Shown: positions 1 to 13,661 of the stretch, piece after piece | Numbering within the stretch: position 1 is the stretch's first letter | How the letters are laid out: each line of letters starts with the position of its first letter | From: a virus | UHGV virus genome: UHGV-1335354 | Reading direction: 5' to 3' (one strand) | Length of the DNA stretch: 16,228 bases | The notes under the pieces: model-generated | What the model was told of the DNA's origin: nothing | The model's database searches: none | Seen by the model: only the letters and a program-made list of their open reading frames with translations | Made by a program: the position numbers and the translations under genes

Positions 1-55
1 AGAACGAGAGCTTCCCAAGCTCTATACGAGGGTTCGATTCCCTTCGCCCGCTCCA
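1..55 (+). tRNA. glyU: tRNA-Gly (anticodon CCC), 5' part cut by window edge; its 3' end is the attL side of the island
   Basis: Sequence matches the 3' two-thirds of enterobacterial tRNA-Gly(CCC) as I recall it: anticodon loop CTTCCCAAG, T-arm GGTTCGATTCC, acceptor 3' strand CGCCCGC, discriminator and CCA at 53-55. Confidence 0.9.
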
Positions 56-70
56 GAATCTCCCCAGGTG

Positions 71-93
71 GAGAAGACTAAAAAAGTCTTCTC
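71..93. other. perfect 8-bp stem hairpin (GAGAAGAC / GTCTTCTC, 7-nt A-rich loop) just downstream of the tRNA; no U-tract
   Basis: Inverted repeat read directly from the sequence; function unknown (tRNA 3' processing or att-associated structure). Confidence 0.3.
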
Positions 94-552
94 TGTCAGC
101 AACTTAAACAGTTACCTATTTAATTTGCTTAGGAGTTCTACCATTGTGATCCGCCCTTAGTAACTGTCACGTTAAGTTACACGGTGAGATGACAGTATAA
201 CCTAACGTTGGCGGCAGTTGCACCTCTCACACCGCGATAGCACAACGTGAAGATAAAGCCCATCCTGGCATTGTAATGTCATCGACAGACTGAACACACG
301 CATTTAAGCCCGATGTGCGGCCTTGTGGCTGCGTAAACAGGTTTATGGTGATATTGGTCCTTGCAAACCATATGCAAGCTCTATCAGCGTTTCAGCCACG
401 CTCCCAACGGGTACACGGTTATCCTGATAAGGTGTGATCTTTCTGACAATCTGATGAAGTCGCTACGCTCCCGCTTGTTGCTGTATCACCAACGGGGCTT
501 TATGGTTTCTATTGTCTATAATAATCTCACAATTCCCCTGCATGAGGTTGAT

Positions 553-759
553 ATGACTGTTAGCTACAAGATTACTTATGAGCATAGAGACGGTGATCAA
601 ATTAGAATGGAAGAGGTTTTATTCCATTCAGAGCATGAACCAACAAAAGATGAAATTCATGATGCAGTAAGAAAAGACACTGTGAGATTTAATTCTCCAT
701 CTAATGGAGTAACGGCTGTTTCAGGGTTTAAAGTGATTTCGGTTGTCCCTGTTCCATGA
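553..759 (+). CDS. hypothetical small protein (~68 aa); the ORF track extends it to 361 only via a TTG codon
   Basis: ATG at 553 preceded by GAGG 5 nt upstream; open frame to stop at 759; followed by a hairpin. No family recognised. Confidence 0.35.
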   Translation: MTVSYKITYEHRDGDQIRMEEVLFHSEHEPTKDEIHDAVRKDTVRFNSPSNGVTAVSGFKVISVVPVP

Positions 760-770
760 ATGGTTATAGA

Positions 771-787
771 AGGGGCTGGAAGCCCCT
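771..787. terminator. short hairpin between convergent genes (AGGGGCT-GGA-AGCCCCT), candidate bidirectional terminator
   Basis: 7-bp perfect GC-rich stem with 3-nt loop between the stop at 759 (+) and the stop at 793 (-); flanking sequence AT-rich on both sides. Confidence 0.45.
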
Positions 788-792
788 AATTA

Positions 793-1113
793 TTACTTCT
801 TAATATCGCCAGTGCATTGATATTCGATAGTCACAAGTGTTTGCATACAACCAGATGAAGAAGGTTGTGAACATTGAGAAGTGAATCCACCAAAAGGCTC
901 GGCTCCTGAATATCCCCAAGCGGCACAACGCGCTTTGGCTGCATTCATGCCTTGTTGTGGATCTACAACAGGACTTTCAAACATACCGTAAGAATAACTC
1001 ATCCTAACTGTGCCGTCTGATTTGCTTCCACCAGTTGGAACGAGTTGTTTTTTTGTTGCACATCCAGAAATAATCAATGTTGAAGCAAGTAACAGCATTA
1101 AACTTTTGCGCAT
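793..1113 (-). CDS. putative lipoprotein (106 aa) with six cysteines in the mature part
   Basis: N-terminus MRKSLMLLLASTLIISGC has a signal peptide plus lipobox (I-S-G-C) typical of signal peptidase II substrates; no specific family assigned. Confidence 0.6.
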   Translation of the reverse strand: MRKSLMLLLASTLIISGCATKKQLVPTGGSKSDGTVRMSYSYGMFESPVVDPQQGMNAAKARCAAWGYSGAEPFGGFTSQCSQPSSSGCMQTLVTIEYQCTGDIKK

Positions 1114-1257
1114 GTAAATAATCCCAAGAGATAATGGTTATGTATTGATTTAAAGCGTTTTTAGATTAATGCATTAACTTAGCAAAATTAAGTCTTTTCT
1201 GATTGTTTGCAGAGTAAAAATGAGTTGCTTTCGAAATTATTTCGGATGTTTATTGTA

Positions 1258-1425
1258 TTACGGTTTTTCAAACCGTCTAACTATTGTCGCTATTGAATGG
1301 GCAATAATAGCAAGAGGATTCATTTCGTCATTGGAGGCAACAAAAAGTCGGTAACTGATAGCTACAACGAATGAAACAATAACGAGAAAGCGGATAGTGC
1401 TAAGATGTTTTGAAGATAAATGCAT
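1258..1425 (-). CDS. unannotated small hydrophobic protein (55 aa), candidate membrane peptide
   Basis: Hand-translated minus-strand ORF MHLSSKHLSTIRFLVIVSFVVAISYRLFVASNDEMNPLAIIAHSIATIVRRFEKP; ATG preceded by AGGGGG Shine-Dalgarno ~5 nt upstream; absent from the ORF track because it is under 60 aa. Confidence 0.4.
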   Translation of the reverse strand: MHLSSKHLSTIRFLVIVSFVVAISYRLFVASNDEMNPLAIIAHSIATIVRRFEKP

Positions 1426-1765
1426 AACGCCCCCTAAATGAATGTGAGGGGGATTAAATCATGCAAATTTGTTGTGTGCAATACTGGTAATTTATCCTAA
1501 TAGTCTACTATTCACCTCAATCTACGTCAACCAATATTTGATGTAGATTTGATTTTCTTTTAAAAACAATATGTTGCAATTTGTTGGGTTTTGGGGTTAG
1601 GTTGTTTTTTGGACGTTTCCATCAAGTGTAAAGATACGTTTAGCCTTCATAGTGAGTTCAGTTACTGTCTTTTTCTCTGAAATCGGCGCATACGTGATCA
1701 TCGCTTAACGAGAAGATCAGCGCCGTCAGGTCCATGCAGCGACAATTCTGAAATATCAGGAGGCA

Positions 1766-2317
1766 TTACGCTTCCTGCTCTTTCTTGATACGTTGCACCG
1801 TCTGTGTGCTGACACTGAAATCTTTTGCTACGCTCCGAATTGATCCACCATTCGCGAGAGCGGCAACAATTCCCGCTCGATCAATTGCTTTTCCATTACC
1901 ACGTTTTGCTATACGCCCAGCTGCCTTAGCTGCGGCGATCCCTTCACGTTGACGCTCAAGCATCATTTCACGTTCCATTTGTGCCACTGCTGCAAGCACT
2001 GTGAGCATCATATTCCCTGCGGGAGAGTTCTTCCCTGTCTTAAAGTCTTCTTTATGGAAATGCACAGACACGCCGCGCTCTGTTAATTGCTCAACCGTTG
2101 CCAGAAGGTCGGCTGTATTACGGCAAAGGCGATCAATGCTGTGAACATGCAAAACATCACCTTCCCGCACATAGTTCATCATTGCCTCAAACTGTGGGCG
2201 CTGGGTATTCTTGCCTGACGCTTTATCTTCAAAGACTTTATCAAGAGTTACTCCAGCTAATTGACGGTCTGTGTTTTGTTGCACAGTCGATACCCTAATG
2301 TATCCAATATTAGCCAT
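1766..2317 (-). CDS. serine recombinase, small resolvase/invertase type (183 aa)
   Basis: N-terminus MANIGYIRVSTVQQNTDRQ with catalytic Ser at position 10, conserved R/D residues of the resolvase catalytic domain, C-terminal HTH (GGSIRSVAKDFSVSTQTVQRI). AGGA Shine-Dalgarno upstream. Confidence 0.85.
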   Translation of the reverse strand: MANIGYIRVSTVQQNTDRQLAGVTLDKVFEDKASGKNTQRPQFEAMMNYVREGDVLHVHSIDRLCRNTADLLATVEQLTERGVSVHFHKEDFKTGKNSPAGNMMLTVLAAVAQMEREMMLERQREGIAAAKAAGRIAKRGNGKAIDRAGIVAALANGGSIRSVAKDFSVSTQTVQRIKKEQEA

Positions 2318-2551
2318 TTTCTTTATTCCTTCTGTGTTGATTTGTGTGTAGTGATTATTGATCGTGTTGATTAGGTGTGTAAAGGACTTTTTTCACTACG
2401 AAATTCGAAGGTTTTTAGTGTGGTGATTTAGCCTGCTTTATCACTACACGTCTTGCATGAGAATCATGTAGTTACATTTTGGTAAAATTAGCAAGCTATT
2501 AAATAGTGTGTTTATTTTGAAAAAATAATTTTTTGTTGCATTAAAGGAAAC

Positions 2552-2585
2552 TTGTTCAATAAATGGTAGAACATTTATTGAGCAA
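2552..2585. promoter_or_regulatory. 34-bp palindrome (14-bp arms, 13/14 match, 6-bp spacer): candidate protein-binding or recombination site
   Basis: TTGTTCAATAAATG-gtagaa-CATTTATTGAGCAA read from the sequence, ~235 bp upstream of the serine recombinase start. Confidence 0.35.
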
Positions 2586-2940
2586 CAATTTTGCAGTGAT
2601 ACGCTATATGCCGCATTACATAAGGCTTTGCTGATGATAATGTAAAAGTGAAGAAAGTAAGAATTGCACTTTGAAGCTACTTTTCATTGCATTTTTTAGT
2701 ATGGAATTACACGGAATAAACTATGAATATTCTACGATTTACACGAGATATTCTTGCTGTTTAATTCCGGCTTTGGAGATCAGGCATTCGCAAGAATACG
2801 CTAACGCGTTGCCTGAAAAGCCATTGCACATAATAGAGGTGAGCGTATAGCGATACACTAATCATAACAACATCTTCTTACTTTTTAGTTAGTTAGTTGT
2901 TAGTAGGTTATTGTTATGCGCGCTATTAGCGCATGTATAA

Positions 2941-2989
2941 AGGTATCATTTTTATCTAAAGGGGCTTTAGACATTTTTGATACCTTTTT
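2941..2989 (+). terminator. bipartite hairpin (outer 8-bp and inner 6-bp stems) followed by a T-run; candidate rho-independent terminator or structured RNA
   Basis: AGGTATCA...CTAAAG-GGG-CTTTAG...TGATACCT followed by TTTTTC. Confidence 0.35.
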
Positions 2990-3025
2990 CTGTGCAAGAC
3001 ACTTACCAGTGTATAGTGCGGTTTC

Positions 3026-3077
3026 CCTACCTACCCAGGAAATGAGTTCCTACCTACCCAGGAAATGAGTTCCTACA
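3026..3077. repeat. 23-bp perfect tandem direct repeat, 2.3 copies (CCTACCTACCCAGGAAATGAGTT)
   Basis: Copies at 3026-3048 and 3049-3071 are identical, followed by partial copy CCTACA. Confidence 0.9.
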
Positions 3078-3084
3078 ATACTAT

Positions 3085-3106
3085 AATTAAACTACAATTA
3101 AACTAT
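3085..3106. repeat. 11-bp AT-rich tandem repeat x2 (AATTAAACTAC / AATTAAACTAT)
   Basis: Read directly from the sequence, immediately after the 23-bp repeats. Confidence 0.7.
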
Positions 3107-3239
3107 CTTTTATAAATTCTTTTATCTTTTAAAGAATAATTATAGGGATACCCGTTAGGGAGTCTTCGACTATCCCTTAATCTATTGGCATTCGCCAGAA
3201 CCTTGCACAAGTTAGACTGATGCTTGTCATAACAGATAG

Positions 3240-3287
3240 TTTTTGTTTTTTGTTTTTTGTTTTTTGTTTTTTGTTTTTTGTTTTTTG
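3240..3287. repeat. heptanucleotide microsatellite (TTTTTTG), about 7 units
   Basis: G at 3245, 3252, 3259, 3266, 3273, 3280 and 3287 with T6 between each; perfect periodicity of 7. Confidence 0.95.
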
Positions 3288-3943
3288 TTAGTAGTTAGCT
3301 GATCTATGTTCGCTTTCCGCTCACAACGAATATGTAATCTACTATGTGCAAATAGCCTACGGCTTGCGTATGGCTAATAGTCTTGCGCTGTGCGCAGAAC
3401 GATAATTAACTAACTACCATCTAACGATTGAAATTTACTTGTGCAATAACCTGAGCGTAAGCGAATGGTTGTTAGTGTCGCGTTACCCTTTGGGGATGCT
3501 AACGCATAACATGACAAAACAACCAACAACAAAAAAGAAAGAATGGTTTTTGTAGTTGAAGGTTAAATAAGATTCTACCGCTTAAATCAAGCCGTAGGCG
3601 AGCTTAACAGGGTAATGTAAGGGAAACACCTTAGCGGTAATAGATTAGCTCGTTACAGAGCTTCTGAGAACTTTGCAGGTATTTTATAAGATGTCTGAAA
3701 TCAGAGTTTATCTATCCACCATCTTTCCATCATCTGATAAATCAAAAATAAGACCCTTAAATAAGCCTCTGACGAGATAAACAACCTCTACATAAGGGAA
3801 TGTATTGTTTTTATCAAAACCCCGTCAGAGTGCGATTGAGAGCGTTTTAGACAACAGGGAAGAATTGTACCAGAGTAGGCAGCACAAAAAGCTAAGAAAA
3901 ATTATAAGAAATTGAAAATGATCAAATTTTTTATAAAAGAGGG

Positions 3944-3972
3944 TTGACAAAGCCGCCGTTATGTAGTATTGT
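3944..3972 (+). promoter_or_regulatory. candidate sigma70 promoter for the rightward small-gene operon
   Basis: TTGACA (3944-3949), 17-bp spacer, TATTGT (3967-3972); about 115 bp upstream of the first gene. Confidence 0.45.
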
Positions 3973-4088
3973 AAGTAGGGAGGGGAGAAACATCTCTCTC
4001 CATCTAAATAATCAAATCACAGAACACTGCACTTTGAGCCGTCAGGCTGCAAGGTGTGTTTTTCTTTTATCTAAATAAGGAGTTTTTT

Positions 4089-4271
4089 ATGAAATGGTAT
4101 ACACCGGAACACGTCGTAGAGGCATTTAAAAAAGGTGAGCTAACACGACATCAAGTAAGGATGAACAGGAACACAGCGCGGCGCTGTGGTTATCCAGAGC
4201 GTGAAAAATGCTTTGACGATGCACTAAAAATTATTGATGAACTGCGTAAGGCAGAAGCAGAGAAAGAATAA
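4089..4271 (+). CDS. hypothetical small protein (60 aa); ORF track start 4056 is probably too far upstream
   Basis: ATG at 4089 preceded by TAAGGAG at optimal spacing; protein MKWYTPEHVVEAFKKGELTRHQVRMNRNTARRCGYPEREKCFDDALKIIDELRKAEAEKE. Confidence 0.5.
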   Translation: MKWYTPEHVVEAFKKGELTRHQVRMNRNTARRCGYPEREKCFDDALKIIDELRKAEAEKE

Positions 4272-4294
4272 TAACAGGAGAAGGAGAAAACCAA

Positions 4295-4471
4295 ATGAAT
4301 ATTAATTTTGATTCTGCAACTTATAACGCGTTGTTAAATCGTGCAAAGGCAGAAGGGAAATCAATTCCAAAACTTGTTAATGAATTACTAATTACAGTCC
4401 TTACAAAGGAGGAACTAAATGAACCAAAACACCAAAACAATTGCCGAAGCAAAAGCGCAATGCCTCAATAA
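4295..4471 (+). CDS. unannotated small ORF (58 aa), possible ribbon-helix-helix (CopG/Arc-like) DNA-binding protein
   Basis: Hand-translated: MNINFDSATYNALLNRAKAEGKSIPKLVNELLITVLTKEELNEPKHQNNCRSKSAMPQ; GGAGAAGGAG upstream; N-terminal 40 aa resemble an RHH fold by composition; overlaps the next gene by 53 nt in another frame. Confidence 0.4.
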   Translation: MNINFDSATYNALLNRAKAEGKSIPKLVNELLITVLTKEELNEPKHQNNCRSKSAMPQ

Positions 4472-5084
4472 GAAAGATAGTAAACAAACATATGTAGTAG
4501 TTGAACAATGGCTGAAGATGTTTAAAAAGTGGTTCTCACCGTCAGGTAAGGAATACACCGCGACACTTCCAGCCGTTGAAATCTACAGTTACGTAGCTGG
4601 GTTCAATGAACAAGGGCAAGAATGTTACGCCAATCAAAAAACATTAGCTAATATTGGAATGGTTAGTGATCGTCAGGTGCGTAATATTATAAATATGTTT
4701 ATTGATATGGGTGTTCTTTCTGTAGAGGCACGGGACGGGCAAACATCACTCTATAAAGCATTACCCTTTACAGATGCACACATCACACCACCGGAAGACG
4801 TAAAAACCTCTGTAAACGTAGAACAGCCTGCACCTGAAACACAGGAACCGTTAGAAGCGACACACTCTATTGAGCAGGAAACACAGGCAGAAATCACGGA
4901 ACAATCTGATCTTTTTACATGGCTTATTTCCATAGACAGCCAAAAGCCTATGCAAGAAGAAACAGAAAATTTTATAAAACGTGCACTGACCTCGAAGAGG
5001 ATAATTCTTGAAGATGATGCTTTTAATGCACTGATGATAGCCCTGAGAAAAGAAAGTGAAATCTATGACTCAATACCATTTTAA
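4419..5084 (+). CDS. putative winged-helix/HTH DNA-binding protein (221 aa), replication-initiator-like or regulator, with acidic low-complexity C-terminal half
   Basis: AAGGAGG Shine-Dalgarno 7 nt upstream; central segment ECYANQKTLANIGMVSDRQVRNIINMFIDMGVLSV resembles HTH modules of phage/plasmid replication initiators; no Walker motif. Confidence 0.55.
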   Translation: MNQNTKTIAEAKAQCLNKKDSKQTYVVVEQWLKMFKKWFSPSGKEYTATLPAVEIYSYVAGFNEQGQECYANQKTLANIGMVSDRQVRNIINMFIDMGVLSVEARDGQTSLYKALPFTDAHITPPEDVKTSVNVEQPAPETQEPLEATHSIEQETQAEITEQSDLFTWLISIDSQKPMQEETENFIKRALTSKRIILEDDAFNALMIALRKESEIYDSIPF

Positions 5085-5096
5085 GGAGAATAAAAA

Positions 5097-5354
5097 ATGA
5101 AATACAACCTGACATTAAACAAACGAACATTCGAAATTACAGAAAGCGGCTACACACTGGCAAAACAGATCGCTGATAGCAATTATAAGCTACCCGCGAT
5201 TATCAGCTTTCAGGAGTTACCGCACAGTAAAGAACACACACAGCATTGGCTAAATCACCTAAGCCATTTTGGGGTAATTCAGTATGAAGCTGTGAATAGT
5301 CAGACGTTCCGTTTGCTCGAGGTAAACCCGTTTGAATTGTGGATGACACTGTGA
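5097..5354 (+). CDS. hypothetical protein (85 aa)
   Basis: ATG preceded by AAGGAG; part of the co-oriented operon; no family recognised. Confidence 0.5.
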   Translation: MKYNLTLNKRTFEITESGYTLAKQIADSNYKLPAIISFQELPHSKEHTQHWLNHLSHFGVIQYEAVNSQTFRLLEVNPFELWMTL

Positions 5355-5557
5355 TCATATTCGATGGCGAATTTTCACAAGAAATCTTTCTGCAATATTT
5401 ACGGGAAAGAACGGGAATGATTCTGTTTGATTCTGAGTTTTCCGGTGTGGTAGGTGAGCAATTTTTATATGCTCTTCTCGATAACCTAAGTAAACAAGGA
5501 TTATTGCAGTATACAAAAACTCATATGAAAGCATTCAGAATCGACTCTGTAGCTTAA
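5339..5557 (+). CDS. hypothetical protein (72 aa), GTG start overlapping the upstream gene
   Basis: Open frame with GTG at 5339 overlapping the preceding stop; no family recognised. Confidence 0.35.
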   Translation: MDDTVIIFDGEFSQEIFLQYLRERTGMILFDSEFSGVVGEQFLYALLDNLSKQGLLQYTKTHMKAFRIDSVA

Positions 5558-5685
5558 AACAAACAACAAACAACTATCAAACATCTTGAAGGGTGAAACA
5601 ATGGAAAGCTTAATATTTTTCTTAGTATTTATGATCGCTTCCTTTTTTAACACTGCAACAAGAAAAACAAAACGAAGGGGAAGCA

Positions 5686-6066
5686 ATGAGCAAGAAAAAA
5701 GGCAAGAAAAACGTAATAACAACTATTGGCGAAGCATGTGATCAGTATGCGTTAAACAATCCTCGCAAATATAATTATGAGCATGATGCACAACCAGGCG
5801 AGGAATTGATCTTTATACTTGAAGAACCAAGCCCAGAATTGACAGACGAAGAATTATCAATCATTCAAAGTATGGATGGTGTTTACTTCAATCCGCGCCC
5901 ACGCAAAACAACAATCATTGATAGTAGTCTTCTTAAAAGATGGCAGTGTTTAGGCTTCCAGGATATGAATCATTTTCGTGGCTACATGGCTCTTAATAGT
6001 TTGCAGTATGCAGGCGCAAGAGAGACAGAGTTACTTATGCTTGAAAGAATAAAAATAGACGATTAA
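5686..6066 (+). CDS. hypothetical protein (126 aa), lysine-rich N-terminus
   Basis: ATG preceded by GAAGGGGAAG; no family recognised. Confidence 0.5.
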   Translation: MSKKKGKKNVITTIGEACDQYALNNPRKYNYEHDAQPGEELIFILEEPSPELTDEELSIIQSMDGVYFNPRPRKTTIIDSSLLKRWQCLGFQDMNHFRGYMALNSLQYAGARETELLMLERIKIDD

Positions 6067-6107
6067 CAGCGTTGGCTGAATATAACCCTTAACAAAAGGA
6101 AAATAAA

Positions 6108-6329
6108 ATGATTAACAAAGCAATTTTAGAGACAACCACTTTTCATGATCTTAAGCTTCTTTCAGAATGTTTTATAAATATTATTGAACGTGCAAAGGAA
6201 GAGAACGATCTGGCAACTCTGGATGACGTTGTAGACAACATTGCAACTTATAAAATCCCGCTCACTATTGCTATGAAGAAAGCACGCGAAGCACAACAAA
6301 AATTAGAACAATTAGAGGAAGTGGCATAA
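6108..6329 (+). CDS. hypothetical small acidic protein (73 aa)
   Basis: ATG preceded by AAAGGAAA; stop overlaps the next start (ATAATGA). Confidence 0.5.
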   Translation: MINKAILETTTFHDLKLLSECFINIIERAKEENDLATLDDVVDNIATYKIPLTIAMKKAREAQQKLEQLEEVA

Positions 6330-6643
6330 TGAGCGAAGTTCACACCGTAACTATTCAGCTATACGATTTAATCATCGACCTTCAAAAATCTGTTAACGAA
6401 GCCATAGAAGATCCGACAGAATTTAATATAGGAAAAGCCGTTCTCAATCTTCAATCTCTACATGATGCAATGTCAATGTTAGTTGTAGCTTGTGAGGAGG
6501 CCGAAGGCGGGAAAGTTGATGCAGAAGATCTTGCAAACTTCAATCTCATGTTGGCTGATTGTAGTTGTGTTGTTCAAAGTGCAATAGAAGACTTACAGCC
6601 GCTTATTGATAACCTGTTAAGGGGTAAGCATGAGCAACTTTAA
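6329..6643 (+). CDS. hypothetical strongly acidic protein (104 aa)
   Basis: GAGGAAG Shine-Dalgarno; Asp/Glu-rich composition; translationally coupled to neighbours. Confidence 0.5.
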   Translation: MSEVHTVTIQLYDLIIDLQKSVNEAIEDPTEFNIGKAVLNLQSLHDAMSMLVVACEEAEGGKVDAEDLANFNLMLADCSCVVQSAIEDLQPLIDNLLRGKHEQL

Positions 6644-6863
6644 AACTAAGCGTGTGGAGTGCCTGGCGCTCTCTGAGATGGGCGTGTCCTGCGCCTGTTT
6701 CACCATTGGAAAGATCTATACCGGACTACTGAACACAGAGAATAGCTTGATGGTTATCACTGATGACAACGGCAACAACCAGGCGGTTGTAGTGGGCGGT
6801 GCGTGTGCTTTCGGTAGCTGGAAACTGACTACAAAGAAAAATGAAAATAGCACGAATAGCTAA
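6630..6863 (+). CDS. hypothetical small cysteine-containing protein (77 aa)
   Basis: AAGGGG upstream; overlaps the upstream stop; local GC higher than neighbours. Confidence 0.45.
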   Translation: MSNFKTKRVECLALSEMGVSCACFTIGKIYTGLLNTENSLMVITDDNGNNQAVVVGGACAFGSWKLTTKKNENSTNS

Positions 6864-6872
6864 AGATATACA

Positions 6873-6901
6873 TTGACTTTATAACAAGAATGTTATATAA
6901 T
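6873..6901 (+). promoter_or_regulatory. near-consensus sigma70 promoter with no convincing ATG-initiated ORF downstream
   Basis: TTGACT (6873-6878), exactly 17-bp spacer, TATAAT (6896-6901). Confidence 0.45.
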
Positions 6902-6956
6902 AATAAATATGCTTGGAAGATGATAAAGCAAGGATTGCATATTCTCCAATTATATC

Positions 6957-7316
6957 TTACCTCTGCAGCCTCTTATTGTCAATAAGAAAATCTAAGAGAC
7001 GGCGACCGCCACGATCGCCCATCTCTTTAAAACAGTTTTTAGAAAACATCCTCGTGTTTTTCATTGTTGGGTCTGTTCTGATTAGTTTTTCCCTTTTGGT
7101 AAGCGCGGTAGTTTCATTCCTTTTCTGCCGCTGCTTATTTTCAACAAAGAAAAGTTTTCTAAAAGCTGTTTTATAACAGCCTATACCCCTATAAGTTATT
7201 GAACGTTTCTTGGCTGGGTATATGCCTTGCGGCATAAAATCACTATTAAAATTATGTTTCCAACCCGTAGCAAGTTGAGCGTAGTTGAGTGATTCCTTGT
7301 TATCTGTTCTCGCCAT
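6957..7316 (-). CDS. possible basic protein (119 aa, Lys/Arg-rich); may be spurious
   Basis: ATG-initiated minus-strand ORF, weak and poorly spaced Shine-Dalgarno, rare codons; start codon is embedded in a palindrome; lies antisense to the orphan promoter. Confidence 0.25.
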   Translation of the reverse strand: MARTDNKESLNYAQLATGWKHNFNSDFMPQGIYPAKKRSITYRGIGCYKTAFRKLFFVENKQRQKRNETTALTKREKLIRTDPTMKNTRMFSKNCFKEMGDRGGRRLLDFLIDNKRLQR

Positions 7317-7345
7317 ACCTGATGGGCGTCAGGTTATGAACAGAT
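7302..7345. promoter_or_regulatory. nested inverted repeats (outer ATCTGTTC/GAACAGAT, inner CCTGA/TCAGG): candidate operator or RNA structure
   Basis: Read from the sequence; arms share the CAGAT/CCTGAT motif with the terminator stem at 7431-7477. Confidence 0.35.
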
Positions 7346-7430
7346 AGCGCCTTGCGCCAGTTACACATCCCTTACGGTCGGTGAATCCTAAATAGCCAAC
7401 TACCTGGTAACGGTGCATTGTATTTGAGAA

Positions 7431-7486
7431 AACAGATCAGGAAAGACTTTCCAAAGGGTCTACTCGCCTGATCTGTTCTTCTTTTT
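7431..7486 (+). terminator. long-stem hairpin followed by a T-run: candidate rho-independent terminator
   Basis: Perfect 11-bp stem AACAGATCAGG / CCTGATCTGTT with a 25-nt loop, followed by CTTCTTTTT. Confidence 0.5.
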
Positions 7487-7591
7487 AGAACATATAACAA
7501 TGACTGATCATTCTTATATGCTCTTCTCATGAAAGTATATAATCAATGTTATGCTTAATTCGAACATTAAAACCCCCCTCTAATTAATATA

Positions 7592-7619
7592 GCCAGCCTA
7601 CCCGCTGGCATATTTTTAT
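7592..7619 (+). terminator. short hairpin plus T-run, second candidate terminator before the structural-like operon
   Basis: GCCAGC-ctaccc-GCTGGC followed by ATATTTTTA. Confidence 0.35.
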
Positions 7620-7656
7620 AAGTGGAAAACAAATCTGTTATAAATGGGACCACTCC

Positions 7657-7860
7657 ATGAAAAAACAAGACATGATAATCAGTAAAGACGGGGAAACGAT
7701 GACTGTTAGTGATGAAAACATCCTTAAAGTTGCCGCACTGTTGGGAGTTACTCCCGAAAGTCTTCGCTCTACTACTGAACAATTGTTTAAATCTGCTAAT
7801 AATGCGGAAACACCCGCACAGGCTATTTTAAACCGAATCACACAACTGAAAGGAAAATAA
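7657..7860 (+). CDS. hypothetical small protein (67 aa), first gene of the structural-like operon
   Basis: ATG-initiated; predicted largely helical C-terminal half; scaffold-like role is speculation. Confidence 0.45.
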   Translation: MKKQDMIISKDGETMTVSDENILKVAALLGVTPESLRSTTEQLFKSANNAETPAQAILNRITQLKGK

Positions 7861-7865
7861 TATAT

Positions 7866-8252
7866 ATGGCTAACCCATACGGCGTTAAATTCGCCCCTGT
7901 AAACGCGAGCAATGACCTTGTGCGTTGCAAAATTATCGCCTATTCCGGCGATCCCCTGCTGCAAGACCGTTTAATCACACTGGCGGCACCACTGACAGAA
8001 GATGTTATTGTCGGTGATCTGCTGAAAGCTGATGGCACCAAAGCAACCGCCGCCGCTGATATCGCTTACGTCGCTGTAGAACCTTCGTTTGCAGGTCAGG
8101 AAAGCGTAGTGGTTGCACATCCTACTTTCGTTATTCTGGCGCGTGCTGGTATCGAATTTAACGGCATGGCAGAAGAAAGCGTGATCTCAAAACTGCAATC
8201 TATTGGTTTCGTGATCGCTGGTTATTCCGAAGCTGCAATCCCTACTACTTAA
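7866..8252 (+). CDS. possible phage head decoration-like protein (128 aa)
   Basis: Size, position directly upstream of the capsid-sized gene, and a loose pattern resemblance to lambda gpD/SHP-type decoration proteins; E. coli-like codon usage. Assignment unverified. Confidence 0.55.
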   Translation: MANPYGVKFAPVNASNDLVRCKIIAYSGDPLLQDRLITLAAPLTEDVIVGDLLKADGTKATAAADIAYVAVEPSFAGQESVVVAHPTFVILARAGIEFNGMAEESVISKLQSIGFVIAGYSEAAIPTT

Positions 8253-8270
8253 TATAAGGAAATATAAATA

Positions 8271-9305
8271 ATGAATATTCAAGAATTATTTGGTCGTCAG
8301 GCGAGCGTAGTAAGCCCATTCGAATATGAGCAAGGCTTAAACCTGCTGTTCTCTTCCCTGGAGATCTTTGATAAGCAATCTCACAGCACTAACAGTATTC
8401 TTCTGACTACTGCAATTGAAAGCTTTATGCAGATTGCAAATGAGCAAGAACCCTACGCACAAAGTCAGTGGGACTCAAGCAAGCGCGGCACCTTCTCAAA
8501 CGTAATGTTTGAAATGAAGCACCTTGCAACCATCAACAGCGTGACAAGTCGTGATCTTGAACAGTACAGCCGTAAAAATCTTTCTACTGCTGACTCTATG
8601 CTGCTGGCGATCAATGATTTTGCTAATCAGCATTACCGCTCACATGAGAACGCTGTAGAACGTGATCTGCTGCGTGCAATCCTCACGCTGAAAGTAGAAT
8701 CTCAATTTGCAGGTCAAGGTGATATTGATTTGCTGGAAGGTGACGCTAAAACCGTAGCGCCTGCAATTGACTTCACAAGCACTACCGTAAACCCTTACCG
8801 TGCACTGGCTAAGATTGTTCGTCAACAGTCTAACATTCTGGGCGAATCCCTTGCGGCTAAACGTTCCGGTGTTCTTGTGCTGGCTGCTGGCGGCGCTGCT
8901 GATGGTCTGCGTTACAACGATATGCTGAAAGATCAGGTTGTTTACTCCAGCAATGCACAGGCAAGCGCGGCAGTAACTAAGATCGTAGCTGATAACCCAG
9001 CGTATGATGCTTTCCAGCTTGCACAGGTGACTGTTATTGATGTTAGTGACTTCCCGTCAATCGTTGCAGAAATCGGTGAAAATGGTTTGGTTGTGATCCC
9101 GCTGTTCCCTGCTGATGTTCAAGCTTACGTGCTGCATACAGGCGTCGCGGTCCGTCATGCCGAACACGGTAAAGATGCGGAAACACATCACCAATATCTG
9201 ACACAGGATCAGTTTATGTTCCCGTCAGTGTGCACCGAAACGGCTTACCTGCCATTCATTCAGAAAGTAGTTGCTAAAGCGATTATCTTCTCTGAAGCAC
9301 AGTAA
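8271..9305 (+). CDS. possible major capsid protein of the lambda gpE-like family (344 aa)
   Basis: AAGGAA Shine-Dalgarno; length matches gpE (~341 aa); N-terminal segment QELF...FEYEQGLNLLF resembles the gpE N-terminus as I recall it; follows the decoration-like gene as in lambda D-E order. No alignment run. Confidence 0.6.
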   Translation: MNIQELFGRQASVVSPFEYEQGLNLLFSSLEIFDKQSHSTNSILLTTAIESFMQIANEQEPYAQSQWDSSKRGTFSNVMFEMKHLATINSVTSRDLEQYSRKNLSTADSMLLAINDFANQHYRSHENAVERDLLRAILTLKVESQFAGQGDIDLLEGDAKTVAPAIDFTSTTVNPYRALAKIVRQQSNILGESLAAKRSGVLVLAAGGAADGLRYNDMLKDQVVYSSNAQASAAVTKIVADNPAYDAFQLAQVTVIDVSDFPSIVAEIGENGLVVIPLFPADVQAYVLHTGVAVRHAEHGKDAETHHQYLTQDQFMFPSVCTETAYLPFIQKVVAKAIIFSEAQ

Positions 9306-9347
9306 GAATAATAACGCTCCAGCACGTTAAAAAATAATGCTGGCGAT

Positions 9348-9414
9348 AAAGGGCAAAAGGGATTAACTAACCTGTAAAGCAAATACAGTAACGGATCTCT
9401 TTGCCCTTTTTTCG
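9348..9414 (+). terminator. long hairpin (AAGGGCAAA ... TTTGCCCTT) followed by a T-run downstream of the capsid-like gene
   Basis: 9-bp perfect stem with ~42-nt loop then TTTTTCGTTT; an inner 6-bp inverted repeat CCAGCA/TGCTGG lies at 9318-9342. Confidence 0.4.
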
Positions 9415-9448
9415 TTTATACCGTCTATTAAATATTGAGAGAAAAATC

Positions 9449-9649
9449 ATGAGCGAACAAAACAAACAAGTAGAATTATATAAAGCAGTGCGCACACTGG
9501 CAGAAAACACCGATGAATCCATTGTAAACGTTAGCGCCTTATGCCGTTTTCTGGATGTGGATCATAATCGTGTGCGTCAATATGCACATTACCACAATGT
9601 AAGTGCAATCGCGGCTATTCAGTATGTGATGAATAACCCTGTAAAATAA
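9449..9649 (+). CDS. hypothetical small protein (66 aa); ORF track start 9401 is a TTG inside the upstream hairpin
   Basis: ATG at 9449 preceded by GAGAGAAAAATC; no family recognised. Confidence 0.45.
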   Translation: MSEQNKQVELYKAVRTLAENTDESIVNVSALCRFLDVDHNRVRQYAHYHNVSAIAAIQYVMNNPVK

Positions 9650-9667
9650 TAAAAGGAGTACCCAACA

Positions 9668-11515
9668 ATGAGTTTAGATATTTCTGTATCTACTTTAAAA
9701 AATACAGTAACCTTTGTTACCGATCATAAAAGCCTGAATAAAGCTAAAGCAGAAGTTGAAAAACTCCGTAAGCAAATGTCAGCCGTGAAAGACGTAGAAA
9801 TACGTGTTAAGACACACAAACAATCAACAGCTAAAACAAAAAAAGACGTAGACGATATTGCTAAAAAGCAAGCACAGGTAGATAAGGCAAATCTCAAAGC
9901 ACAAAAAGCGGCTCAACGTGTAGCGGCGCGAGAACAAAAAGCCCTGGCAGCACGCAAAGAGAAAGCAGAATTAAAACTGTTAGATGTTGGATCAAGTATT
10001 AGTGCAATGAATCGTCTTAATGTGTCTGAACAATACAAAGCTATTGCACAAGCTAAAGCTATTGCACACGAATATGAGAAGGGCGCTATTAGCCTGGCAC
10101 GTATGAATAGCCAAATGAAACGACTTCAACAGCAACAACGTAAGATTAACGGCAATCGTAACGCTCATGCTAAAGCTTATGCACCTGTTAAGGGTAGCGG
10201 GAGTATTGGCGGCGGTGCTGCTGCTGTTATGCTGGGCGGCTTAGGCGCTGGCGCTGCATTCTTGGCTATGAGTAAAGCAAACGAATTCGTTGCTAATAGT
10301 TTTGCCAATGCTGAGACACAAGGTGAATTATATAGCCGTGCGAAGCTGGGCGGTGTAGACGTTAACCAGATGAATAATATTGAGCAATGGGCGTATAAAA
10401 ACGGCGTTGATTCAATGATGGGCGAACAAGGGAAACGTAAATACCTCGACCAAATGAAAGATGTGCGTGAACGTGCAACCAAATCTTATGATGAGACTGA
10501 ATATGTAGTTGATAAAAAAACTGGTAAAGGGGAATGGAAGGGCGGCGATTCAGGTATTAATACTTTATTAAACGAAGGTTTCTTAACTAAGAAAGATTTA
10601 AAAGACTTCGCTAATAATCCGGCAGGTTTAATAAGTAAAGCAACACAAGGAATGGTGGCGAAAGGTTATTCTGATGCACAGGTGGGGTCACGGCTTGAAG
10701 ACCTGGGAGATGACCTTATGTTGACCTCCAAATATTGGACACGATCCGCTAAAGAAGTGGAACAATCAGCCCGTGAACAAAAAGAATCAGGACGCTGGAT
10801 AACGCAGGCACAACAGGAAAGCGTGATTAAATTCCGTGAACTGAATAATGCACTTACCGGACTTTCTGACTCACAAGGGATCGCCTTTGTTGATGGCTTT
10901 ATGAAATCTCTCGATCCTGCTGTGATTGAAGAATTTAAAAAGAGCATGGTTGCAATGCTGCCAATGTTTACCAAATTGGGCGAGGCTGTAGGGGGGCTGC
11001 TTAATGCGATCATGAAAACTATCAACTGGTTGATGAAAAATGACGAGAAGACGGCAGCTATTCAGAAGAATTTAGGTGATGCCCCTCCTTTAAGTAATGA
11101 AGGAATGAAGAAGAATTTAGATAATCTCACTCCTGATCAATATAAAGGCGCTGGCACTGCAACAACTGCACCGGATAATAGTAACTCTCTGTTTAATACT
11201 ATTAAGGGCTTTTTTGTTAATGGTGATGATTCTCCTTCTGGCGGTCAGGCTGCAATGCAATATGACGTTACAGGGCAAAACATTGCCAACCTGAAAAACA
11301 GTGCTGCACAGCAAGCTATGCAAGCTCCAGCCTACACATTTGCGCCTGTTCTCAATTTTGCACCTGAATTACAAGTTAATGCACAAGTGCCGCTAACTAT
11401 TCAGAGTGATACCGGACGATTGAGCGATTATATCGACTTCAAATCTAAAGCCTCTGCCGCTGAGTTTAGCAAGCTATTAACCCTGGGCGTTATGTCAGGC
11501 GGGTCAACCTATTAA
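9668..11515 (+). CDS. coiled-coil, glycine-rich protein (615 aa), tape-measure-like
   Basis: AAGGAG Shine-Dalgarno; N-terminal ~160 aa K/A/Q/E-rich coiled-coil-like; Gly/Ala hydrophobic segment GSGSIGGGAAAVMLGGLGAGAAFLAMS; no enzymatic motif or Walker A seen. Confidence 0.6.
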   Translation: MSLDISVSTLKNTVTFVTDHKSLNKAKAEVEKLRKQMSAVKDVEIRVKTHKQSTAKTKKDVDDIAKKQAQVDKANLKAQKAAQRVAAREQKALAARKEKAELKLLDVGSSISAMNRLNVSEQYKAIAQAKAIAHEYEKGAISLARMNSQMKRLQQQQRKINGNRNAHAKAYAPVKGSGSIGGGAAAVMLGGLGAGAAFLAMSKANEFVANSFANAETQGELYSRAKLGGVDVNQMNNIEQWAYKNGVDSMMGEQGKRKYLDQMKDVRERATKSYDETEYVVDKKTGKGEWKGGDSGINTLLNEGFLTKKDLKDFANNPAGLISKATQGMVAKGYSDAQVGSRLEDLGDDLMLTSKYWTRSAKEVEQSAREQKESGRWITQAQQESVIKFRELNNALTGLSDSQGIAFVDGFMKSLDPAVIEEFKKSMVAMLPMFTKLGEAVGGLLNAIMKTINWLMKNDEKTAAIQKNLGDAPPLSNEGMKKNLDNLTPDQYKGAGTATTAPDNSNSLFNTIKGFFVNGDDSPSGGQAAMQYDVTGQNIANLKNSAAQQAMQAPAYTFAPVLNFAPELQVNAQVPLTIQSDTGRLSDYIDFKSKASAAEFSKLLTLGVMSGGSTY

Positions 11516-11562
11516 TCATCGCTGTGGGGCTGTTTAGCCCCCTTAAATAAGGATTACAAATT

Positions 11563-12240
11563 ATGGCTTATGGTGCTTTAACCATCGGACGACCGACAGA
11601 ATCACAAGTAAACAGCACAAGTAACGATTCTAACGCGAAAGCGACGAAAGGACAGAACGGTTTCGCTATCATCACCTCTAACCTCGGCAGTGGTGCTAAT
11701 GCTGCGTATGCAGAGTATCAAGCTCTCAGCTTTGACAGCGTGGAATCGACAAAAGTTAGTCGCAATGCGGACGTAACAAGCTATGCCGTTCAGGATGGGG
11801 CTATGGTGTCCGATCACATCCAGATCAAGAACAATAAGTTTTCATTGCAAGGGCGCGTAAGTGAAACAGTATTGAAGCTTAACCCTGATATGCTTAAGAA
11901 CGCGGGTATTAACGGCAATCGTAGAATGCTTATGCTTGAATACCTAAATCAGATCATGGACTCACGCCAGCCCTTCATGTTGATAACAGAACATCGTAAT
12001 TTTGACAATGTGGTGCTGGTTGGGATTGATTACGAAGAAGAAGCCAGCGAATCATTGCTCTTTAATCTTGAATTCGAACAAATACGCCTTGTGAGCTATG
12101 CAACCACTAACGCTATTGCTACAAAGACACAGAGCAATAAATCGACAGGTGGCAGTGTTAAAACTAAGGTTAACCCGACACCACAAAAAGCACCTACGAG
12201 TACAGGTGAGGACGTTATAACGCCAGTATTTAAACAATAA
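11563..12240 (+). CDS. hypothetical protein (225 aa), last gene of the structural-like operon
   Basis: AAGGA Shine-Dalgarno; followed by a hairpin; no family recognised. Confidence 0.55.
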   Translation: MAYGALTIGRPTESQVNSTSNDSNAKATKGQNGFAIITSNLGSGANAAYAEYQALSFDSVESTKVSRNADVTSYAVQDGAMVSDHIQIKNNKFSLQGRVSETVLKLNPDMLKNAGINGNRRMLMLEYLNQIMDSRQPFMLITEHRNFDNVVLVGIDYEEEASESLLFNLEFEQIRLVSYATTNAIATKTQSNKSTGGSVKTKVNPTPQKAPTSTGEDVITPVFKQ

Positions 12241-12282
12241 CAATAGCGGTACTATAAAATGCTCCGTAACGAGATAATCCTA

Positions 12283-12313
12283 AAAGAGGCTCCCATTACA
12301 AGGAAGCCTCTTT
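12283..12313. terminator. hairpin between convergent genes (AAAGAGGCT ... AGCCTCTTT), candidate bidirectional terminator
   Basis: 9-bp perfect stem with 13-nt loop, T-rich 3' flank, between stop at 12240 (+) and stop at 12334 (-). Confidence 0.5.
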
Positions 12314-12333
12314 ATTGCGCCTATGGCGTTGTT

Positions 12334-13554
12334 TTAAGCCTTAAAATCAATATTTAATTCATATCTTACTAATTCTACATATTCAGCTAATTCTTGAATG
12401 CTTGCCCCTTGTGAGTAGGTGCGAAAGGCTTCTGTTTTAGCTATCTGCTCTGTATGTCCGGTAATGGCTCCGATCCGCTGTTCAGGCACTCCGGCACGAT
12501 CAAGACAAGTGATAAACATCCCGCGCAAGCTGTGAAAGCATTGTCTATTTGTAGCGATTGGCAAGACGCTACGACGTAAACGTGAGAATGCTTGAGAATA
12601 GAAAGGGCCTTTCTTACCGTCGATTCTTTTTACTTTGTTCGAGTGAGGGAACAAATATTCACCATAATTATGATTTAAATATTCATCGACAATAATCGAT
12701 AGTCTCGAATGTATCGGAACGTGCCTGATCCCTGCTTTAGTCTTACTTTTGCTGATATAAAAACAGCGTATTCCTTCCACAGTTACAACTTCTGACTTTT
12801 TCAGGCTTGCCAGTTCGTCTAATCTGCATCCTGAAAACAAGCCCATTAAAATAATATTTCTGATCTCCGGCTCCGCTGCATCAAGTAGCTTTTGCATTTG
12901 TTCAGGTGTAAACGGTTGATAACTCTCGATTGTGCGACGTGCTTCGAGGTTATGACCGTGAAAAGGGTTACTGTCTGGTATTCCGTCATAACGGCGTTTA
13001 GCAAATTCATAGAGCGATCCTAAGCATGTAAGCCAGTTTTGACGAGATTGATCGGCTGCTCCTCGTTGCTTCTGGTCATCTAAGAATACTGTTACAAGCC
13101 GTCTGCCTATTTTCTCAATATGAATATCATCTTTCTGAATGCTTTGTAAAAATAGCTCAACGGCCCTTGCTGATTTCTGTAGTGTTGAGTATGAACGACG
13201 CTCTCTGTAGCATTCGGCGTATTCGTCACGTATTAGGCACAGGGAAGGCGATGCATAACCGCGTTTTACGGCTCTTTGCGTGTTTTTATTGGCCCTTGCC
13301 TCTGAATGTAAGGATTCAATAGCTTGTTGTAACCTCCTTTCGGGGTTATCAGGATTATGTTTCCGCTTTAGTTCCTCCCATTCTAATAATAGATGGTTTC
13401 TGAATCTTCTCGCCTCATTCAGATCTCGTGTAGATGTGCTTTTTCTCCACAACTTGTAAGGGTAAAGATGACGTAAGTATTTAGGAACAAAAATCTGAAA
13501 CATCCAGATCCCATCTTTTCTCTTAAATAAGTATGCTTGGCTCTTGATCGACAC
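12334..13554 (-). CDS. int: tyrosine-type site-specific integrase (406 aa), GTG start
   Basis: C-terminal catalytic-domain signature: Arg in GCRLDE, HSLRG box, ITGH, terminal Tyr region; AGAGGA Shine-Dalgarno 8 nt before GTG; lies 86 bp inside the right direct repeat. Confidence 0.9.
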   Translation of the reverse strand: MSIKSQAYLFKRKDGIWMFQIFVPKYLRHLYPYKLWRKSTSTRDLNEARRFRNHLLLEWEELKRKHNPDNPERRLQQAIESLHSEARANKNTQRAVKRGYASPSLCLIRDEYAECYRERRSYSTLQKSARAVELFLQSIQKDDIHIEKIGRRLVTVFLDDQKQRGAADQSRQNWLTCLGSLYEFAKRRYDGIPDSNPFHGHNLEARRTIESYQPFTPEQMQKLLDAAEPEIRNIILMGLFSGCRLDELASLKKSEVVTVEGIRCFYISKSKTKAGIRHVPIHSRLSIIVDEYLNHNYGEYLFPHSNKVKRIDGKKGPFYSQAFSRLRRSVLPIATNRQCFHSLRGMFITCLDRAGVPEQRIGAITGHTEQIAKTEAFRTYSQGASIQELAEYVELVRYELNIDFKA

Positions 13555-13631
13555 GATAATGATCCTCTATTATCACGTAATCAGTTACCTATGATTGATC
13601 ACAAAATCTTTATTTTACAGCAGGTTATTAT

Positions 13632-13661
13632 GGGTTTCCTCGATTCCCTTCGCCCGCTCCA
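13632..13661 (+). repeat. attR: direct repeat of the tRNA-Gly 3' end
   Basis: 13640-13661 is identical (22/22) to tRNA positions 34-55 (TCGATTCCCTTCGCCCGCTCCA); upstream GGGTT also matches with a 3-4 bp insertion. Confidence 0.85.

Follow-up and report, generated by a model that had tools for sequence, protein, structure and literature searches.

This analysis concerns a small open reading frame (ORF) in a stretch of 16,228 nucleotides (nt) from the virus genome UHGV-1335354; the whole stretch is called the window, and positions are counted from its first letter. The window is Escherichia coli chromosome: strain EC100 was 100% identical over a 1501-nt query (window 3900-5400). The ORF lies on the plus strand (58 codons, 4295..4471; ATG at 4295, TAA at 4469-4471) and encodes the protein MNINFDSATYNALLNRAKAEGKSIPKLVNELLITVLTKEELNEPKHQNNCRSKSAMPQ, for which a ribbon-helix-helix (RHH) DNA-binding fold is predicted. 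It starts 23 nt past the stop codon of a 60-amino acid (aa) gene, with an AAGGAG motif (4281-4286) 8 nt 5' of its ATG, and shares 53 nt with a 221-aa helix-turn-helix (HTH) gene, which is read in the +1 frame relative to it. An earlier note on this DNA had described this arrangement (a 58-aa ORF with a good ribosome-binding site, placed between the first gene and the HTH gene and overlapping the latter by 53 nt in a different frame) and was right in all of it. The features of the locus and of its surroundings are specified in Table 1.

The ORF had also been called hidden. This is true of RefSeq, where the Prokaryotic Genome Annotation Pipeline (PGAP) makes no call in this island type (L001, L003 and L004; L numbers designate the loci compared), but not of other records: the exact 58-aa sequence is present in GenBank and UniProt as 'hypothetical protein' (ART18141.1, A0A2X8N2K5), PGAP does call a diverged homologue (WP_048229743.1) and a phage copy is annotated as bas60_0101.

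For assessment of its distribution, a 201-nt query was compared with complete E. coli genomes and was found in 260 of 5426, at identities from 100% down to 69.5%. Protein homologues were obtained from Erwinia typographi and from a Serratia metagenome-assembled genome (loci fetched) and, by the source names of the proteins, from Enterobacter hormaechei, Escherichia albertii and Shigella sonnei; a scan of IMG/VR with the close alignment returned five loci from uncultivated viral genomes (UViGs). The gene order was constant in all close relatives: a small gene, the RHH ORF, and an HTH gene of about 220-260 aa. Shortened forms of the element were seen in E. coli beside the thiamine pyrophosphate (TPP) riboswitch/thiM locus (L004, L005/L006). 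These retain the small, RHH and Rep-like genes with one or two more but lack structural genes, and appear to be relatives, decayed or minimal, that occupy a second site in the chromosome.

Selection was tested over codons 1-41 by comparing the window with the copies of about 70% identity in E. coli, Erwinia and Serratia (L005, L007 and L008). In the RHH frame, the nonsynonymous rate (dN) was about 0.14-0.17 and the synonymous rate (dS) was 1.8 or saturated, giving dN/dS of 0.08-0.09; the other two frames gave dN of about 0.34-0.42, dS of 0.10-0.37 and ratios of 0.9-4.3. The differences fell mainly at third codon positions (6, 2 and 21 at positions 1, 2 and 3). Judged by these substitutions, the small ORF is a real gene under strong, frame-specific purifying selection over residues 1-41, and its frame is conserved in homologous islands, the first of the checks that the earlier note had named.

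The missing PGAP call, and the constraint placed at the nucleotide level on the 3' part by the Shine-Dalgarno (SD) sequence and ATG of the next gene, would also be expected of a chance ORF, i.e. an AT-rich by-product or annotation noise whose DNA is conserved as the ribosome-binding site and leader of the HTH gene. We give this next to no probability: the synonymous excess is frame-specific and extends over 41 codons (dS saturated, dN about 0.14), the ORF has its own SD sequence and a confidently predicted fold, and it belongs to a family of proteins of about 50-60 aa with the same pattern across 32 representative clusters. The frame-specific selection on codons 1-41 rules the chance ORF out.

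The pattern of selection is reversed in the 53-nt overlap, where the RHH frame gave a ratio of nonsynonymous to synonymous differences (pN/pS) of 1.4 and the HTH frame one of 0.19 (9 substitutions only). Constraint of both overlapping frames had been proposed as a further check; it was found for the HTH frame and not for the RHH frame, so that the overlap is, as far as these substitutions tell, without two constrained frames and is constrained in the HTH frame only. The C-terminal tail varies in sequence and length among variants (NEPKHQNNCRSKSAMPQ, NDQKYQNNCRSESQMSKSERW, NDKTEINTRS, NAKKEKTRT), the length of the overlap ranges from 29 to 65 nt across loci, and the tail is predicted to be disordered, with a predicted local distance difference test (pLDDT) score of about 48-55 in the AlphaFold2 (AF2) models described below. 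Because the tail is variable and the selection pattern is reversed in the overlap, the functional part of the protein is, on this comparison, residues 1-42 or so, and the remainder is unconstrained read-through.

AF2 models were prepared from two alignments (11 and 24 sequences), as monomers only. Both models agree: residues 1-6 are extended and are followed by a helix (7-20), a turn (G21-K22-S23) and a second helix (24-38/40), with pLDDT of 87, 96, 94 and 79 in the first four 10-residue blocks. DSSP gave no strand, which is normal where only a monomer is modelled and the sheet, two-stranded and antiparallel in RHH homodimers, forms between subunits. Nearly all Foldseek matches were RHH proteins: the PutA DNA-binding domain superposed at 0.6-0.9 Å over 39-42 residues and Arc at 1.2-1.4 Å, and MatP, ParD, NikR, AmrZ, omega and CopG were matched as well (for a domain so short, the Foldseek E-values are not significant). 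In one E. coli strain (L006 2502-2666), a 9-nt duplication adds LQR inside helix A of the RHH homologue, resulting in a 54-aa protein.

Sequence comparisons were carried out at increasing depth. Single-sequence scans of Pfam, NCBIfam and PADLOC returned nothing significant for the RHH protein or for the 60-aa gene, and the query matched PHROG 36888 at 2.7e-4. An exhaustive hidden Markov model (HMM) search yielded the 32 representative clusters, mostly of 50-60-aa proteins, which share the pattern M-x-I-x-F...[FY]..L...A...G/N-x-S-I-P-x-L-V. Members of this family match Pfam RHH models weakly (RHH_3 5.6e-4, RHH_4 0.0063, ParG 0.0061; all under the gathering scores). The G21-K22-S23 turn, of the G-x-S/T/N type by which RHH proteins set the N-terminus of helix B against the DNA backbone, is invariant in close homologues, and Ser or Thr is frequent at its third position in the wider family. 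When compared with solved RHH proteins, the 24-sequence family profile matched AvtR at 1.8e-7 (residues 6-40) and ParG at 2.3e-4 (from the strand to the end of helix B); this deeper profile was required, the shallow 11-sequence profile giving only noise against the sequences of the Protein Data Bank (PDB). Membership of the small protein in the RHH (Arc/MetJ/CopG) superfamily is supported, because structure prediction, fold comparison and profile similarity agree. The RHH-like character that the earlier note had read in the N-terminal 40 or so residues is thus borne out by AF2, Foldseek and the family profile, and the structure prediction that it had suggested returned the RHH fold.

The junction with the downstream gene is kept across relatives down to about 33% identity: the RHH gene stands directly before an overlapping, replication-type gene in 12 of 12 loci. 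In 11 of these, the downstream ATG lies in the +1 frame within the conserved Asn codon 42/43 (AAT-G), and GAGGAA, which encodes the conserved Glu-Glu pair, constitutes the SD sequence 5' of that ATG. As GAGGAA and the ATG lie inside the Glu-Glu and Asn codons, the C-terminal 'EE-x-N' motif of the family is, read at the nucleotide level, the translation-initiation region of the next gene. No significant mRNA structure hiding the SD sequence and ATG of the replication gene was found (fold z = +0.39).

The 221-aa protein encoded downstream matched Pfam HTH_36 at 1.1e-4 (under the curated cut-off) and PHROG replication initiation families at 6.8e-6 and weaker. An HTH_36/replication-initiator-like protein is present at this place in the window, L014, L017 and L018; in three other loci (L011 4128-5597, L015 5125-6582 and L016 4917-6239) the place is taken by a protein of 440-489 aa with a Walker-A-like GSGKS motif and a faint to weak match to Pfam DEAD. 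Replication genes appear to have been swapped at a fixed SD/ATG joint inside the RHH gene. Because the junction is kept while the type of downstream gene changes, the RHH gene is, by this synteny, the fixed head-piece of the replication module, whichever replication protein follows. From the overlap, and from the lack of an intervening promoter or terminator, we infer that the RHH and replication genes are co-transcribed.

Table 1. Features of the small RHH gene, its operon and the surrounding island (window coordinates)
Feature	Position	Strand	Basis or remark
attL, 22-nt direct repeat TCGATTCCCTTCGCCCGCTCCA, 3' end of tRNA-Gly	34..55	+	left island boundary
YecR-family lipoprotein gene	793..1113		RefSeq annotation
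Resolvase/invertase gene	1766..2317		
Putative sigma-70-type promoter of the early operon (TTGACA, 17 nt, TATTGT)	3944..3972	+	TTGACA kept in 6/6 aligned islands
Terminator-like hairpin and T-run in the operon leader, 5' of the 60-aa gene	4029..4068	+	RNA fold
First operon gene, 60 aa, unknown function	4089..4271	+	syntenic in all close relatives
Ribosome-binding site of the small ORF	4276..4286	+	AGGAG 4276-4280, AAGGAG 4281-4286; read from sequence
Conserved RHH core, codons 1-40	4295..4414	+	predicted beta-strand residues 2-6, helix A 7-20, G21-K22-S23 turn, helix B 24-38/40
SD sequence AAGGAGG (4406-4412) and ATG (4419-4421) of the downstream HTH/Rep-like gene	4406..4421	+	inside small-ORF codons K38-E39-E40...N42
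Unconserved, predicted disordered C-terminal tail and stop codon of the small ORF	4415..4471	+	read-through into the HTH gene, overlap from 4419
Downstream gene, 221 aa, winged-helix HTH_36, like phage replication-initiator/DnaD families	4419..5084	+	Pfam, PHROG
Tyrosine integrase gene	12334..13554	-	family matches
attR, second copy of the 22-nt repeat TCGATTCCCTTCGCCCGCTCCA	13640..13661	+	just past the tyrosine integrase gene

The locus belongs to a 13.6-kb island bounded by the 22-nt repeats (34-13661). Besides the integrase and the replication module, the island encodes a Dit-like tail protein (Pfam 4.9e-27), a 615-aa tape-measure-like protein (PHROG 1.6e-27) and a 344-aa protein that is distantly related (21% identity, pairwise E = 2e-6) to proteins which match Pfam Phage_cap_E and are encoded at the corresponding place in related islands. 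For a large terminase or portal protein, no island ORF was big enough and no family match was obtained (Pfam, PHROG). The island looks like a phage satellite because it combines an integrase, a replication module and capsid-E-like, tape-measure-like and Dit-like proteins, without recognisable terminase or portal. The same gene order was found in metagenomic and other enterobacterial contigs (L011, L014, L015 and L017). A literature search returned nothing relevant on this island family, on a satellite of Justusliebigvirus or Stephanstirmvirinae, or on RHH proteins in phage satellites. Within the integrase gene, 81 nt (window about 12388-12468) are 78% identical to a 'left inverted repeat' of phage P2-EC53 and to phage R18C; this was the sole match of the rest of the island to phages by blastn.

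Upstream of the operon lies a repeat-rich region of about 1.6 kb without a credible ORF (2320-3940). Its tandem repeats comprise a 23-nt unit (x2.2, 3026-3076), two 11-nt units (x2.4 each, 3080-3105 and 3710-3735) and TTTTTGT (x7, 3240-3289). The Rfam scan gave only a truncated tRNA at the start of the window and nothing in 2320-3940, a region that may contain an origin, a packaging site or a non-coding RNA. A resolvase gene and a similarly long annotation-free gap also precede the operon in L003 and L004 (repeats were examined in the window only). The operon leader (3979-4095; fold z = -3.25) comprises a 5' hairpin, then the terminator-like hairpin (4029-4057) and then the T-run, and diverged islands of about 70% identity (E. 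coli, Erwinia, Serratia) have the same layout with other stem sequences. The leader hairpin may serve as an attenuator or be targeted by antitermination, or a short leader RNA may have its 3' end there. The 60-aa gene that follows had no family match in Pfam, PHROG, NCBIfam or PADLOC.

The earlier note had offered three roles for the small protein: a repressor, an antitoxin-like regulator or an excision directionality factor. The first fits the context; the other two lack support. We lean modestly towards a dimeric RHH protein that autoregulates the early/replication operon and whose translation is linked to that of the initiator. Its starting points are those shown above (a real gene, the RHH fold, the synteny and the conserved junction with the replication gene), and the mechanism would run as follows. 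The early operon is arranged as promoter, leader hairpin, 60-aa gene, RHH gene and replication-type HTH gene. The last two would share one mRNA and be linked in translation, because the RHH frame contains the SD sequence and ATG that belong to the replication gene. The predicted RHH dimer would bind repeated sites in the control region of the island itself and, by autoregulating the early/replication operon (most likely through repression of its transcription), would determine how much replication initiator is made; that the protein dimerises, that it binds DNA, where it binds and with which sign it regulates are what we infer here. Autoregulation is proposed because the analogous pairs CopG-RepB and ORF56-ORF904 repress their own operon and because AvtR and ParG regulate transcription, as do the other relatives of solved structure, Arc, CopG and omega; most of these five act as repressors.

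Several results weigh against the autoregulator. The query alone reached only E = 0.19 with Pfam FitA-like_RHH, under the threshold of every Pfam RHH model, and hhalign to a CopG sequence entered by hand gave E = 0.002 with a probability of 13%. On the strand, the residues that would face the DNA (N/K2, N4, D6) have a less basic character than their counterparts in classical RHH repressors. Candidate repeats lie near the promoter (inverted and direct repeats at 3902-3936, AAATnATCAAAT at 3916 and 4006, and ATCTAAATAA at 4002 and 4069), and the operator search found none that is common to both island groups, though their RHH strands are nearly identical; TGCACTTTGARGC had 3 matches, and 19 of 200 shuffles did as well, i.e. 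there was no excess over chance. Finally, the RHH gene comes only second in the operon, and a leader terminator is also present, so control may lie elsewhere.

The invariant linkage to the replication gene, maintained even as the type of that gene changes, would equally suit an accessory factor of replication or segregation, which would bind the island origin or iterons (in the manner of ParG, omega or MatP) for initiator loading, origin handcuffing or organisation of the DNA for packaging. ParG ranks second among the sequence matches (2.3e-4), MatP stands near the top by fold, and the 1.6-kb non-coding, repeat-rich region lies upstream. Against this, ORF and family scans revealed no ParA/ParF-type ATPase partner in the island, and ParG and omega are autorepressors too, so that this role overlaps with autoregulation; on its own we consider it unlikely.

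The RHH fold and small size recall the antitoxins of type II toxin-antitoxin pairs, or regulators like them, a role that we hold to be very unlikely. The neighbours of the gene matched no toxin or defence family (Pfam, NCBIfam, PADLOC) and are, in every context examined, the 60-aa protein of unknown function and a replication-type gene. Moreover, the C-terminal tail, which is the toxin-binding part in antitoxins, is variable, disordered and without purifying selection, and in phage the RHH gene occurs alone. The antitoxin role was rejected for want of a toxin partner and of constraint in the tail (pN/pS 1.4).

Copies of the gene in lytic phages bear on the remaining possibilities. Two Justusliebigvirus phages, PaulScherrer (BASEL Bas60) and VEcB, carry an RHH copy of 95-96% identity, which is intact and 100% identical to the island protein in its core; the PaulScherrer copy, annotated as bas60_0101 (61 aa), comes with the ribosome-binding site. 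Island and PaulScherrer agree in every letter of the stretch AAGGAGAAAACCAAATG, which marks the left edge of the homology; this extends from the ribosome-binding site to 29 nt inside the island HTH gene, in the variant of the L003/L004 islands (MIKNIKTIAE). In PaulScherrer the fragment of the HTH gene belongs to no annotated gene, and the only ORF that contains it is an unannotated one of 34 codons. Of 117 phages with the flanking gene in common, 2 have the cassette, and JohannJBalmer has nothing in the slot. Because the HTH-gene fragment lies outside annotated genes, the cassette is confined to 2/117 phages and the JohannJBalmer slot is empty, transfer from island to phage is the parsimonious direction on these sequences.

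The slot is a hot spot of Justusliebigvirus located between a conserved 354/357-nt gene and a gene of about 150-156 nt (L002 3001-3214, L009 1900-3130, L025 1555-1568), with its left junction inside the shared ribosome-binding sequence AAGGAGAAAAC. It holds the island-type RHH gene in PaulScherrer, an RHH-like gene and a chimeric HTH-nuclease gene in muut, and nothing in JohannJBalmer. The RHH-looking gene of muut (muut_153, 55 aa) aligned to the family in register (hhalign E = 8.4e-5) and precedes muut_154 (L009 2130-3128), a protein of 333 aa with two HTH_36 domains (3.6e-15) and a C-terminal MUG113/T5orf172 domain (GIY-YIG superfamily). Its second HTH domain is 75% identical to the island Rep-like protein (90.8% at the DNA level), and its C-terminus resembles endonucleases and putative homing endonucleases annotated in other coliphages and in Salmonella phages of about 105-118 kb. 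The corresponding match (window 4514-4774) was found in four phages, muut, inny, Mt1B1_P17 and BI-EHEC; the position in the slot was read in muut only.

In the precedent of ICP1, the nuclease Odn consists of the PLE protein RepA's DNA-binding domain and a T5orf172 nuclease, and cuts the satellite origin (PMC8263062). By analogy, muut_154 is a candidate anti-satellite nuclease in the four phages, and because it has the architecture of Odn, the slot may be suggested to be an anti-satellite locus in which the captured RHH protein would act on the replication module of the island. Capture of the RHH gene by lytic phages, into a slot otherwise holding a nuclease with a Rep domain, also fits an action on that module. 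A more specific proposal, which we regard as fairly unlikely, is that the phage copy (bas60_0101, and likewise that of VEcB) is a satellite regulator stolen as a counter-measure: expressed early, it would keep the replication operon of the island shut and would be a nuclease-free alternative to the Odn-like chimera.

The exchange of DNA between the island and Justusliebigvirus phages, and the satellite-like nature of the island, could also point the other way, to an effector that binds helper-phage DNA and redirects or represses phage genes. PLE CapR, for example, represses ICP1 capsid genes. This we judge to be quite unlikely, as a phage would hardly retain an intact copy, with a 100%-identical core, of a protein harmful to it, and the tight, conserved coupling is to the replication gene of the island itself. 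The lytic phages are likewise at odds with an excision directionality factor steering the island integrase: the gene is kept in strictly lytic 150-kb phages, at a locus without integrase. In the island, about 8 kb separate it from the integrase gene, and the partner with which it is conserved is the replication gene. Small DNA-binding proteins encoded early in island operons often have that function (e.g. the AlpA and Vis types), and family scans recognised no other excisionase-like gene in the island; nevertheless, the known directionality factors are, to our knowledge, winged-helix or MerR-like HTH proteins, from which the RHH fold differs. The role, which seems to us highly improbable, was rejected on fold, linkage and presence in lytic phages.

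These results add a gene, encoding a small RHH regulator, that is missing from the RefSeq annotation of a common E. coli island, and define an RHH family of about 50-60 aa that marks the start of the replication module in widespread, apparently undescribed satellite-like islands. They also identify 'EE-x-N' as a fixed joint for different replication genes (HTH_36 in most loci, a larger DEAD-matching protein in three). The phage-capture context is the part that could become important: the pattern in the phage slot matches the ICP1-PLE arms race and offers a testable entry to a conflict between E. coli phages and satellites with the BASEL phages. If the phage copy were a counter-measure, the island family would be a satellite of Justusliebigvirus (rV5-like) phages.

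Among known systems, the RHH antitoxins (PrpA/ParD, KacA, FitA) differ from the island protein, next to which no toxin was found, whose C-terminus has no conserved segment for toxin binding and for which PADLOC gave no match. The situation in the phages resembles that of ICP1 and PLE, in that a locus of a lytic phage sporadically carries satellite-derived sequence and the chimera of a sister phage has the Odn architecture (PMC8263062). It differs in that the link between coliphage and island is here one of sequence and in that the phage RHH copy is without a nuclease domain; any anti-satellite action would therefore need DNA binding or repression. We know of no description of such a mechanism for ICP1 and PLE.

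AvtR of Acidianus filamentous virus 6 (PDB 4hv0), which the family profile matched best, is an RHH regulator of transcription from a virus; unlike the island protein, it has 106 aa, belongs to an archaeal virus and has another genomic context. The second-best match, ParG (partition protein and autorepressor of plasmid TP228, PDB 1p94), binds repeated boxes as an RHH dimer. Its flexible N-terminal tail stimulates the ParF ATPase, whereas the disordered part of the island protein is C-terminal and unconserved, and there is no ParF/ParA-like gene.

The closest functional parallel is with CopG (RepA) of pMV158 and ORF56 of Sulfolobus pRN1, RHH proteins of 45-56 aa that are encoded before the replication initiator in the same operon, repress their own promoter and set the level of Rep; repressors of the CopG type bind a (pseudo)symmetric operator at that promoter. 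CopG structures are among the Foldseek matches of the island protein, and the sequence relationship is marginal. Where these plasmids have a HUH Rep or primase-polymerase, the downstream gene of the island encodes a winged-helix HTH_36 protein (in three related loci, a protein with a faint or weak DEAD match); its start codon falls within the RHH frame, and another small gene and a leader terminator come before the RHH gene. What is common to all three is a very small RHH gene immediately 5' of a replication initiator, in one operon (predicted for the island), and the island protein is an uncharacterised addition to the well-known small RHH regulators of the replication operons of mobile elements.

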